Source: Octopus vulgaris
Taxonomy: Eukaryota
Direction: 5' to 3'
DNA length: 64,000 nt
NCBI GenBank assembly: GCA_951406725.2
Contig: OX597834.1
Location: forward strand, 18,972,001 to 19,036,000
A program made the translations under genes and the position numbers. Positions within the stretch are counted from its first letter, which is position 1; each line of letters opens with the position of its first letter. Of this stretch, positions 11,298 through 58,623 are shown one piece after another. Under the pieces are notes generated by a model. That model was not told the origin of the DNA, made no database searches, and saw nothing but the letters and a program-made list of their open reading frames with translations.

Positions 11298-11574
11298 ACA
11301 TTTAAAATCAGAATCAAGGAAAGGGAAAGAGAGATAGAGAAATGTAGAGTATTGAACTTAACAACTAAACAACTAAATTAACAAGAGTGAGATAAGCTAA
11401 TACTAATTTCATGATCGTAATATTAGTATACATTCACATGTTATTGGTTATTGTAATGTTTTAATATAGACATCATCCTCTATAACCTATTATGTTATCA
11501 AAAATATATAACAACCATTGGGGATATATTTAGTGATGTCTGTAATTTCTGGACACCCTATATATATATATATA

Positions 11575-11734
11575 TTTTTTTTCTCTCCTTGTTTTTTCTG
11601 TGTCCCTTTCTGTAGAAGAGCGTAGGCTCGAAACGTAAAAGACTTTTTCTATTCCTGAGCGTTATACTAATACATCTGTTTGTTTTGTACACCACCTGTT
11701 TTCGTCTTTTGTTGTTTTTTTCATAAACTCTCCC
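11575..11734 (+). mobile_element. Family D: ~160-bp element in a (TA)n tract carrying a minimal hammerhead-like motif
   Basis: Homologous copies at 53851 and 55612 and a relative at 35495. Flanked on both sides by TA repeats. Confidence 0.85.
11606..11641 (+). ncRNA. Minimal type I hammerhead ribozyme-like motif (A6U variant)
   Basis: CTTT-CTGTAGA-A-GAGC-GTAG-GCTC-GAAA-CG-TA-AAAG. Stem I is CTTT/AAAG, stem II is GAGC/GCTC, stem III is palindromic ACGT. Confidence 0.65.
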
Positions 11735-11959
11735 TATATATATATGATAGTAACCACATGAACTACGATGAACAAAATATGAGAAAGACATGGTATATAA
11801 TTTTTTTTGTGCAGGGGTTCCCTGAGAGATGTAATTTATTTTAAGGGTTACACAAGGGTAAAAAGGTTTGAGAAACACTCACCTAGACTATAGGATGCAG
11901 TTCAACAGGAAGTATAATTAAGCTGGTTACAGTATAGTACCATGTAACAGCAAAATAAT

Positions 11960-14274: not shown

Positions 14275-14593
14275 CCCCGACTGGCCTCCGTGCTGGTGGC
14301 ACATAAAAAGCACCATCCAATTGTGGCTGTTGCCAGCCTCATCTGGCCCCCGTGCCGGTGGCACGTAAAACGCACCATCCGATCGTGGCTGTTTGCCAGC
14401 CTCGTCTGGCACCTGTGCCAGTGACACGTAAAAAGCACCCACTACACTCATGGAGTGGTTGGCATTAGGAAAGGCATCCAGCTGTAGAAACATTACCAGA
14501 TCAGACTGGGCCTGGCACAGCCTTCTGGCTTCCCAGACCCCAGTTGAACCGTCCAACCCATGCTAGCATGGAAAGCAGATGTTAAACGATGAT
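14275..14593 (+). mobile_element. Family C SINE-like element with three tandem ~62-bp units
   Basis: GTGCCGGTGGCACGTAAAAAGCACC-like unit x3, then GGTTGGCATTAGGAAAGGCATCCAGCTGTAGAAAC...CCCATGCTAGCATGGAAAG...TTAAACGATGATG. Confidence 0.9.
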
Positions 14594-36770: not shown

Positions 36771-36981
36771 ATGCACATACTTAGTCGTATGTATATACAC
36801 ATACATGAATACATACACACAAATATATGTACATACATACATACACCCATATAAGGGATAAGTTATTTTAAATCAAGCATTTTTGCTATCTATTTGATCT
36901 GTGCATTACAAACACATATAACATTAACTCCTTTACCAATATCAAGTTCTAAACCTGTATGCAATATTTGCATTCAATAAT

Positions 36982-37330
36982 TCATAGATTTGTATATAAT
37001 AATAAATAGACTGTATACAATAATAAATAGATCTCTATGCAATAATTCGGAGATCTGCTTTCAATGGTATATAAATCTGTATACAGTAATTCATAGATCT
37101 GTATACAATAATACATATATCTGCTTACAATAAAATAGATCTGCTTACAGTAATACATAGATCTGTAAATATCGATATATAAAACTATATATATATATAC
37201 ATACATACACACACATACACATACAATATGTAAGCCTGTATACAATAATACACAGATTTGTATACAATAATGCATAGATCTGTCTACAATAAAGAAACGA
37301 GGTTTACCATAAATCTTTATACAATAACAA
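36982..37330. repeat. Degenerate ~22-bp minisatellite, consensus CATAGATCTGTATACAATAATA
   Basis: About a dozen imperfect units, interrupted by a TA/CA tract at ~37185-37225. Confidence 0.85.
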
Positions 37331-51014: not shown

Positions 51015-51582
51015 TCATCCCCCTTTTCAAGCCTAACCAGGCTCATGGTCCCGGTTTCCCAGTTTCTGTGGTGTATGTGTTCCCCCCAGCTGGACAGGAC
51101 GCCAGTCCATCACAGAAATAAATGCACCCTTTTAAAACCTAGCCAGGCTCATGGGCCCGGTTTCCCAGTTTCTCTTGTGTATGTGTTCCCCCCAGCTGGA
51201 CGGGATGCCAGTCCATCATAGGAATAAATGCACCCTTCTCAAGCCTAGCCAAGCTCATGGACCTGGTTTCCCAGTTTCTGTTGTGTATGTGTTCCCCCCA
51301 GCTGGACAGGATGCTAGTCCATCACAGAAATAAATGCACCCTTTTAAAGCCTAGCCGGGCTCATGGGCCCGGTTTCCCAGGATTCAATGGCGTATGTGTT
51401 CCCCAGCTGGATGGGATGCCAGTCCATCGCAGCGTTACTCATTTTTGCCAGCTGAGTGGACTGGAGCAACGTGAAATAAAGTGTTTTGCTCAAGAACACA
51501 ACGCGTCACTCGGTCCAGGAATCGAAACCACAATCTTACGATCATGATGCTGACACCCTAACCACTAAGCCACGTGCCTCCA
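51015..51582 (-). mobile_element. tRNA-derived SINE family E with its 3' ~107-bp module present four times, inside one 13-bp TSD
   Basis: Head GGAGGCACGTGGCTTAGTGG...GGTTTCGATTCC, core GTGTTCTTGAGCAAAACACTT and GCGATGGACTGGCATCCCATCCAG. TSD CTTTAGTTTGCAT at 51002-51014 and 51583-51595. Confidence 0.92.
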
Positions 51583-53850: not shown

Positions 53851-54040
53851 GGGAAAGTTTATGAAAAAAACAAAAGACGAAGACAGGTGGTGTACAAAAC
53901 AAACAGATGTATTAGTATAACGCTCAGGAATAAAAAAAGTCTTTTACGTTTCGAGCCTACGCTCTTCTACAGAAAGGTACACAGAAAAAACAAGGAGAGA
54001 AACAAGGAGAGAAAAAAATGTGTGTAGTGGCTAACGATCT
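53851..54040 (-). mobile_element. Family D hammerhead-bearing element (motif at 53941-53976)
   Basis: The 36-nt motif is identical to 11606-11641. Abuts (TA)n. Confidence 0.88.
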
Positions 54041-54281
54041 ATGTTAAATGTCATATGTCCAAATTTGGCCAAATGCATTTTTTTCAATATTTATTTTTGC
54101 TTGCAATAGCCAGTTCTCTTGGTCAAACTATTATATCTCCAGCTGCTTCAGATGCTAAGATATCAAAAATTGTCAAAGTGTAGTATAGTGGTTTTGCATT
54201 GGCATAGTGAAACTATTTTTTCCTTTTCTGAAAAAGCAACATTTTGGACTTACAACACTTTAGCATAATATCAACAATATA

Positions 54282-55611: not shown

Positions 55612-55614
<3 letters not shown>

Positions 55615-55780
55615 AGAATTCACAAAAAAAAGCAAAAGACGAAGACAGGTGGTGTATACAACAGATGTATTAGTTTAACGCTCAGGAAGTGAAAAAGTCT
55701 TTAACATTTTGAGCCTATGCTCTTCCACAGGAAGGAACACAGAAAAGAACCAAGGAGAGAAATTAAAGAATGTGTAGTGG

Positions 55781-55783
<3 letters not shown>
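55612..55783 (-). mobile_element. Family D hammerhead-bearing element, diverged (motif at 55699-55734)
   Basis: Minus strand CTTC-CTGTGGA-A-GAGC-ATAG-GCTC-AAAA-TG-TT-AAAG. Lies between TA and CA tracts. Confidence 0.8.
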
Positions 55784-58506: not shown

Positions 58507-58623
58507 ACTTTAGTTTTTAGATAAGAGGGGTATACATATGAATATACATACATATATATATGTATGCATGTATATATGTATGTATATTCATATGTATATC
58601 CATCTCATCTAAAAACTAAAAGT
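58507..58623. repeat. Palindrome with ~50-bp arms
   Basis: CTTTAGTTTTTAGATAAGAGGGGTATACATATGAATATACATAC pairs with GTATGTATATTCATATGTATATCCATCTCATCTAAAAACTAAAAG. Confidence 0.85.

Follow-up and report, generated by a model that had tools for sequence, protein, structure and literature searches.

Three repeat copies in the window

The window, the whole 64-kb stretch of octopus DNA that was analysed, contains three homologous copies of a repeat, one on the forward strand (11575-11734) and two on the reverse strand (53851-54042 and about 55612-55783), with a (TA)n tract at an end of each. A sequence-only reading had placed copies here and had given each a minimal hammerhead ribozyme with U at the normally invariant core position A6. 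The copies and their (TA)n tracts were found where it had put them, and U at position 6 (U6) was confirmed in all three (11613, 53969 and 55727). The copies, their parts and other repeats of the window are listed below.

11559..11574, no strand: (TA)n adjoining copy 1 on its 5' side, likely target site
11575..11734, + strand: copy 1, very probably the 5'-truncated terminal-repeat (pLTR) end of a Neptune-type element; U6/A7/A17 subfamily; stops at the family's common 3' end
11606..11641, + strand: copy 1 hammerhead-like motif, minimal type I, from its sequence, its fit to the consensus in the searchable PMC4209133 supplement and its conservation
11606-11609/11638-11641, + strand: copy 1 stem I
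11610-11616, + strand: copy 1 core, with U6 at 11613 and N7 at 11614
11617, + strand: copy 1 extra A
11618-11621/11626-11629, + strand: copy 1 stem II
11630-11632, + strand: copy 1 G12-A13-A14
11633-11636, + strand: copy 1 palindrome A15.1-C-G-U16.1
11637, + strand: copy 1 H17, with the predicted cut directly 3' of it
11735..11745, no strand: (TA)n adjoining copy 1 on its 3' side; at the same point full-length elements carry an internal TATATAT
53851..54042, - strand: copy 2, short pLTR copy of copy 1's subfamily; lacks about the first 10 nt from the common 5' start, and (TA)n follows it
53941..53976, - strand: copy 2 hammerhead-like motif, same sequence as in copy 1; U6 at 53969
55612..55783, - strand: copy 3, older subfamily U6/G7/U17, flanked by (TG)n and (TA)n tracts
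55699..55734, - strand: copy 3 decayed motif; U6 at 55727, G12 to A at 55710, C15.2 to U at 55706
51021-51432, 14281-14439, 36975-37292 and 58508-58621 (coordinates as grouped): tandem repeats of 106 bp (3.9 copies) and 62 bp, a 22-bp minisatellite, and a long AT-rich inverted repeat with sub-threshold microRNA matches

Copies 1, 2 and 3 diverge from their own subfamily consensuses by 1.6%, 2.4% and 5.8%, respectively. The 36-nt motif is identical in copies 1 and 2, 42 kb apart, as had been pointed out; since the two copies are 94.9% identical overall and the chance of 36 identical bases is about 0.15, this identity is unremarkable. The motif end GAAA-CG-UH, which had been attributed to every copy, is present in copies 1 and 2 but not in copy 3. 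There the sequence reads AAAA-UG-UU, with G12 and C15.2 lost by CpG-type decay and one stem I mismatch. The CpG decay ascribed to copy 3 is real, but its G7 and U17 are not products of it: both are consensus letters of its own subfamily.

A scan of the window with the full-length element revealed no further pieces of it. No tRNA gene was found in the 64-kb window, in agreement with the reported absence of a tRNA head, and a tRNA-derived SINE was ruled out because there is no tRNA-like head and the 5' part is the UTR of a Penelope-like element (PLE). Rfam detected no hammerhead on the element and none among the window matches listed (150 of 196). A canonical sister copy with A6 was likewise missed, so this blank is uninformative. 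Directly 5' of copy 1, the sequence at 11480-11559 ends in a motif plus TA that we take to resemble a Tc1/mariner terminal repeat; copy 1 may occupy the TA site of that element.

Identity of the parent element

In a genome-wide search the family was found far beyond chance: a 25-mer from the window has 5,643 exact genomic copies, and the reversed-pattern control has 0. Some copies extend 5' into C/A- and C/T-rich sequence, and one of these leads to a GIY-YIG frame. Used as a genome query, the GIY-YIG fragment gave 7,385 candidates, of which 150 were scored. Four candidate places coincide with matches of the window subfamily's UTR, and the motif was present within 1.3 kb downstream on the same strand in 21 of the 29 other GIY-YIG loci fetched (hand count). 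Locus L170 has the order (TA)n, truncated UTR, motif, common 3' end, TTATATAT, 5' UTR, ATG, RT/EN frame, UTR, motif, common 3' end and (TA)n. Its two motifs are 4,285 nt apart and the RT/EN frame between them is broken. L164 has the same two-motif layout of pLTR, ORF and pLTR. The unit of about 170 bp that had been taken for the whole element is therefore only a part, as long copies run on through low-complexity UTR into the GIY-YIG/RT ORF, which starts about 700 nt downstream of the motif. The Penelope origin proposed in the sequence-only reading was supported: the motif lies in the pLTRs of full-length elements L170 and L164, and lack of homology to Penelope-like terminal repeats, which the reading had named as evidence against itself, was not what we found.

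The protein encoded at L160 matched Pfam RVT_1 (E 7.7e-8), with a weak GIY-YIG match (E 0.075, below cut-off); a first, frameshifted EN fragment gave no Pfam match. The element protein carries ADKG, YIDD, YIGQT and flanking C/H motifs, and the L160 frame has a zinc-finger-like C-X4-C-X2-C linker at residue 504, between RT and EN. Features of EN+ PLEs found here are an RT followed by a C-terminal GIY-YIG domain, pLTRs with a hammerhead, a CX2-5CxxC linker and (TA)n junctions. We are confident that the three window copies are short pLTR ends of an autonomous Neptune-type Penelope-like retrotransposon. The Neptune type itself is a probable assignment, made from features described in PMC8557442; Nematis, which has the same linker, is a less likely one. 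Recent mobility, which had also been proposed, is borne out by the low divergence of copies 1 and 2 and by the ORFs of the youngest copies, which are 98.4-99.7% alike. Old U6 subfamilies hold copies that are 7-12% from consensus.

In the window subfamily, the consensuses of 11 EN-bearing and 15 short copies are identical across motif and 3' flank and differ at two places in the T-rich 5' flank (ungapped). As the consensus is shared, the short copies are products of the coding element and not the distinct non-autonomous family that had been proposed. Such a separate short family, with its own masters and mobilised in trans by Penelope proteins, would account for the predominance of short copies and their sharp 5' limit; a solo pLTR also retains the likely promoter and could be re-copied, and small tandem arrays exist (L006 and L142). 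We nevertheless consider it highly improbable, since besides the common consensus a tree made from EN DNA alone reproduces the subfamily series, and the array units are separated by TA and often differ in their 5' ends, unlike retrozyme tandems. A non-LTR retrozyme was ruled out on similar observations: the copies are dispersed with variable 5' ends, their consensus is that of the ORF-bearing copies, and the few arrays are TA-spaced.

Several other arrangements were observed around the fetched loci. Small direct arrays of short copies with TA spacers (L006, L142 and L030) could form dimers in cis. Inverted copy pairs at L028, L185, L216, L201 and L007 are as described for PLE insertions. GIY-YIG-like frames, apparently of another PLE lineage, lie beside Neptune copies at L157:7194-7997 (- strand; no Pfam match) and L159:6479-7702 (+ strand). 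Locus L094 has broken reverse-transcriptase frames, presumably of an RTE-like LINE, 0.6-2.3 kb upstream of its motif; an assembly gap lies between them and the long copy that they adjoin.

Copy ends and a proposed route of mobility

The common 3' site is the end of 72 of 99 window-subfamily copies and lies 97 nt past the predicted cut in copy 1. Past this site, L170, L164 and L028 continue with TATATAT and the 5' UTR. Among 64 copies found by means other than long upstream parts, 40 have their start 66-78 nt ahead of stem I, 7 run further upstream and 17 are shorter. The A of TCAGT is the precise start of ten of the 64, and the next 13 nt hold a single start, which places a sharp 5' limit some 76-78 nt ahead of stem I. 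Loci L001-L030 were chosen for holding the 160-nt query; this choice is biased against shorter copies and not on the upstream limit. The sequence TCA(G/T)T resembles an initiator. When TA-joined 5' ends within 30 nt of the predicted cut were tallied, 3 of 38 lay exactly at the cut and 14 of 38 within -2 to +4. Four upstream bins for comparison held 6, 7, 3 and 8, and the mild, ambiguous excess falls on TA/A-run microhomology. The tally was made by hand on the first 100 of 258 rows (43 loci), with four tandem duplicates counted once and two complex cases dropped. Because copies span the cut site, the insertion templates were uncut at the hammerhead.

Judged from sequence alone, these ends suggest a route of mobility. 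Transcription may start at the initiator-like TCA(G/T)T of the upstream pLTR. The element endonuclease would nick a (TA)n target, and the nicked end would likely anneal to the internal UAUAUAU just past the common 3' end, priming reverse transcription there. Priming in the first pLTR and copying to the RNA 5' end would give solo copies of about 205 nt, and priming in the last pLTR would give long copies, mostly 5'-truncated. Since both priming routes need uncut RNA, slow cutting that requires a dimer or the element protein may be tolerated or favoured.

A four-codon upstream frame (M-I/L-D/I-R-stop) was observed about 7 nt past the common 5' start, for example in L002 and in the L170:6131 region. 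It is preserved across U6 subfamilies with different stops (TAG, TAA and TGA) and is missing from the window copies. In the sister family described below, the frame is ATG-TGA in 8 of 10 copies that have an ATG.

U at core position 6 across the lineage

The motif agrees with the minimal hammerhead consensus in the searchable PMC4209133 supplement in all points except U for A6, and the layout that had been read from the window, a minimal type I hammerhead with a palindromic ACGU, is supported. A genome pattern count with the stems fixed and the loop and N7 free gave U at position 6 in 22,761 of 24,051 matches, A in 515 and C or G in 775. The sister family accounts for about a quarter of the listed A6 rows checked (hand count of about 50). 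At position 6 of 122 copies found without use of the motif, U occurs 116 times, C 4 times, and A and G once each. Exact pattern matches make up 50 of these 122, and dividing 22,761 by this share gives a rough copy total of 55,000. For clustering, 286 distinct motif copies were extracted at a threshold of at least 25 of 36 matches, 19 with poor 3' flanks were dropped, and the remaining 267 were clustered on their flanks only, with three singleton clusters set aside.

The tree of 41 copies made from EN DNA only is a single ladder in which 40 copies have U6, the youngest included. Along this ladder N7 runs U, A, C, U and H17 runs A then U. L092, the lone EN-bearing copy with A6, was picked for that letter; as it branches off deepest, there may have been an older A6 subfamily. 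In contigs of four runs with four organism labels, no other letter reached 2% at 11613; 11614 and 11637 vary in the same contigs, 11614 at 12, 9 and 29% in X15. A clock given in the accessible text of PMC13282606 equates a distance of 0.09 with 25 million years; were it to apply here, U6 would, by loose inference, be some 20-30 million years old. At L162:6826 (+ strand), a far more diverged motif that has U6 and another loop II sequence may place the origin of U6 deeper.

The A6 copies of the family itself (61 exact canonical 25-mers) were considered as an ancestral subfamily, and this was rejected because the 30 fetched scatter over the U6 subfamilies. None of their flank letters is convincingly private to them (the best nominal p was 0.01, among more than 100 columns). 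Being scattered, without private letters and represented by 1 of 122 motif-independent copies, they are most likely back-mutations. A slight A6 excess remains, with roughly 380 family-type A6 copies compared to roughly 60 with G6 (by hand, first rows listed) against a background A:G of 8:4 at GT sites.

No report of an A6U hammerhead core was found in the literature searched; Lunse et al. (on PLE hammerhead variants) and Arkhipova et al. 2017 lie outside that scope, and prior mention is possible. Judging by titles and abstract starts, none of the papers listed concerns an octopus hammerhead ribozyme, and the search for octopus, Penelope and Neptune together returned only Craig 2021.

Conservation of the motif

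The consensuses of seven U6 subfamilies vary in 2 of 36 motif columns, N7 and H17, compared to 44 of 99 ungapped flank columns. For the constrained motif columns the comparison is 0 of 29 against 44 of 99 (Fisher p 8.5e-7), a nominal and overstated p value since the consensuses are related by descent and one rests on 3 copies. Stems no better conserved than their flanks had been named beforehand as evidence against the sequence-only reading, and the opposite was observed. N7 and H17 are the free core positions of the hammerhead, and G17 occurs in no subfamily consensus. Three CpG sites of the motif decay in the copies, C15.2 for example being changed to U in 17 of 122, yet all subfamily consensuses keep them. 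The consensuses also keep G8 and G12, the latter in spite of lying in a CpG. Invariance extends further to loop II and the extra A, both of which are free in hammerheads generally, and to a 12-nt run in the 3' flank; the constraint is therefore in part non-catalytic.

When positions 6 and 7 were left free, every sister-family match (45 of 45) had A6; the flanks of this family are 57-60% identical to those of the U6 family. Besides H17, its motif differs from that of the window subfamily at position 6, in two loop letters and in one stem I pair (C-G versus G-C), this last being a single compensatory event. The conservation pattern favours a fold that would still be under hammerhead-like selection. 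A conserved GAGCG block about 20 nt 3' of the motif (11656-11661 in the window, and homologues), also present in the sister family, duplicates the stem II 5' strand, with which it could compete for pairing to the 3' strand. Other canonical minimal hammerhead-like motifs with A6 and a different stem II were seen at C13:47431163, C21:24745107, C23:5693518 and C17:9898823, and are probably further PLE families.

Two explanations of this pattern dispense with a ribozyme fold under selection. In one, U6 killed the ribozyme in a single founder and the motif is too young to have drifted, which would explain family-wide U6 without any benefit. This is hardly credible, as the subfamily flanks have drifted down to 71-97% identity with 34 of 36 motif columns unchanged, and the old U6 subfamilies hold the copies at 7-12% from consensus. 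In the other, the constraint acts on DNA or coding, through an internal promoter element or a small reading frame, and the likeness to a hammerhead is a leftover. The motif does lie about 77-112 nt past the likely start site, PLE promoters are located in pLTRs according to the accessible text of a review (PMC6765202), and N7 is a third codon position in two frames, a forward and a reverse one. However, no reading frame accounts for the pattern: the other third positions are invariant, stops occur within or beside the motif in some subfamilies, flank indels shift the frame, and the compensatory stem I pair in the sister family points to RNA pairing. We regard constraint of this kind as very unlikely.

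Predicted folding and expected cleavage

In a secondary-structure model of isolated U6 motifs, stem II forms with a P of about 1.0 and stem I with only 0.27-0.39. For the isolated 36-mer, an additional U4-G5-U6/A15.1-C-G helix is predicted with U6, at a P of 0.53-0.98 compared to 0.01-0.10 with A6, and this helix closes the core. With flanks, the P of this helix ranges from 0.01 to 0.95, and it is unstable in several subfamily contexts. By secondary-structure energy, a double-hammerhead dimer (-10.9 kcal/mol) has no advantage over two monomers (2 x -6.3), nor over another cofold (-20.6). In the accessible account of a full pairwise scan of one hammerhead, CUGA-turn mutants had low activity and none was rescued, the C3-G8 swap excepted (PMC9901934). 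Natural A6C variants are described as retaining low activity that is better in Mn2+ (PMC3088659 and PMC7151607), and minimal PLE hammerheads as slow even as dimers (PMC4209133 and the review PMC6765202).

We lean towards the U6 hammerhead being a slowed ribozyme that would still be kept by selection. A doubtful but serious alternative is that the motif of the same element does not cut and serves as a folded or protein-bound signal, for RT/EN binding or for positioning the RT start, and that U6 folds the core into a closed hairpin. This would agree with copies that span the cut site, with the predicted pairing of U6 with A15.1 and with the invariant loop II. It would also agree with published work: CUGA mutants are nearly inactive (PMC9901934), in vitro insertion persists with hammerhead-dead mutants (PMC11167929) and Naiad PLEs spread without canonical hammerheads (PMC8557442). 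On the other hand, variation that is confined to N7 and H17, recurs there and never gives G17 in a consensus is the tolerance of a cutting hammerhead. Fixation of G8 and of G12, the latter in spite of CpG decay, and the instability of the extra U6 helix in several subfamily contexts also argue against a non-cutting role. A broader tentative proposal, to which we give some weight, is that U6 was carried through the whole visible history of the lineage either as an A6U ribozyme activated by the element protein or by dimerisation, or as a ribozyme fold converted to a signal that does not cut but determines the RT start.

The role of PLE hammerheads is unsettled: they cut poorly in vitro and are dispensable for insertion in the one reconstituted system. 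The lineage described here has remained mobile despite a core change that should cripple cutting, and has kept every other core letter fixed. Together, the U6 family and the A6 sister family are a ready natural pair for assays that test the need for ribozyme cutting. If either an activated A6U ribozyme or a non-cutting signal is true, the A6 sister as a control would show the role of the hammerhead in PLE transposition directly. Descriptor searches that demand CUGA would miss such families, so some PLEs reported to be hammerhead-free may hold variant cores.

Comparison with known systems

The motif resembles the minimal hammerheads of metazoan PLEs (Cervera and de la Pena 2014, PMC4209133) in its U-rich 5' flank, short stem I, extra base before stem II, G10.1-C11.1, GAAA, palindromic C-G that replaces stem III, UH and AU-rich 3' flank, and likewise in its pLTR location and its mostly single dispersed copies. 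It is unlike them in that U6 is lineage-wide, whereas the core change described there is U3-A8, and in that the motif is nearly invariant, while those hammerheads are highly variable within genomes. In the searchable text of the PMC4209133 supplement, CUGU was not found within cores and occurs only outside them.

The parent element resembles Neptune-clade EN+ PLEs (Craig et al. 2021, PMC8557442) in its RT, CX2-5CxxC linker, GIY-YIG domain and DKG motif, in the partial tandems that make pLTRs, in its inverted truncated partners and in its (TA)n targets. The non-canonical hammerhead core sets it apart from them.

In PAc, a green anole Poseidon element (Frangieh et al. 2024, PMC11167929), the RT starts lie at 111-118 nt of the ORF and the hammerhead cut is at 26, which by subtraction puts the RT starts 85-92 nt past the cut. 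The PAc hammerhead cleaves only with the protein, and dead hammerheads insert normally in vitro. The octopus element is similar in its insertion ends about 90-100 nt past the cut, its uncut templates and its AT-rich targets. In contrast, PAc has a canonical core that overlaps the ORF start and a priming site without target homology; in the octopus element the ORF start lies well downstream of the motif and the internal TATATAT matches the target.

Non-LTR retrozymes (PMC7229834; bioRxiv 10.64898/2026.07.22.740005) are likewise short, non-coding and pLTR-related with a type I hammerhead, but they are head-to-tail tandems with canonical hammerheads, whereas the copies here are dispersed by-products of a coding element. 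The hammerhead of phage Bcep176 (PMC3088659, PMC7151607) also has a natural change at core position 6. There the change is to C and not U, in a single phage copy with a full stem III, and its low Mg2+ activity is rescued by Mn2+. Elements of this class and motifs of this class are already known, which limits the surprise.
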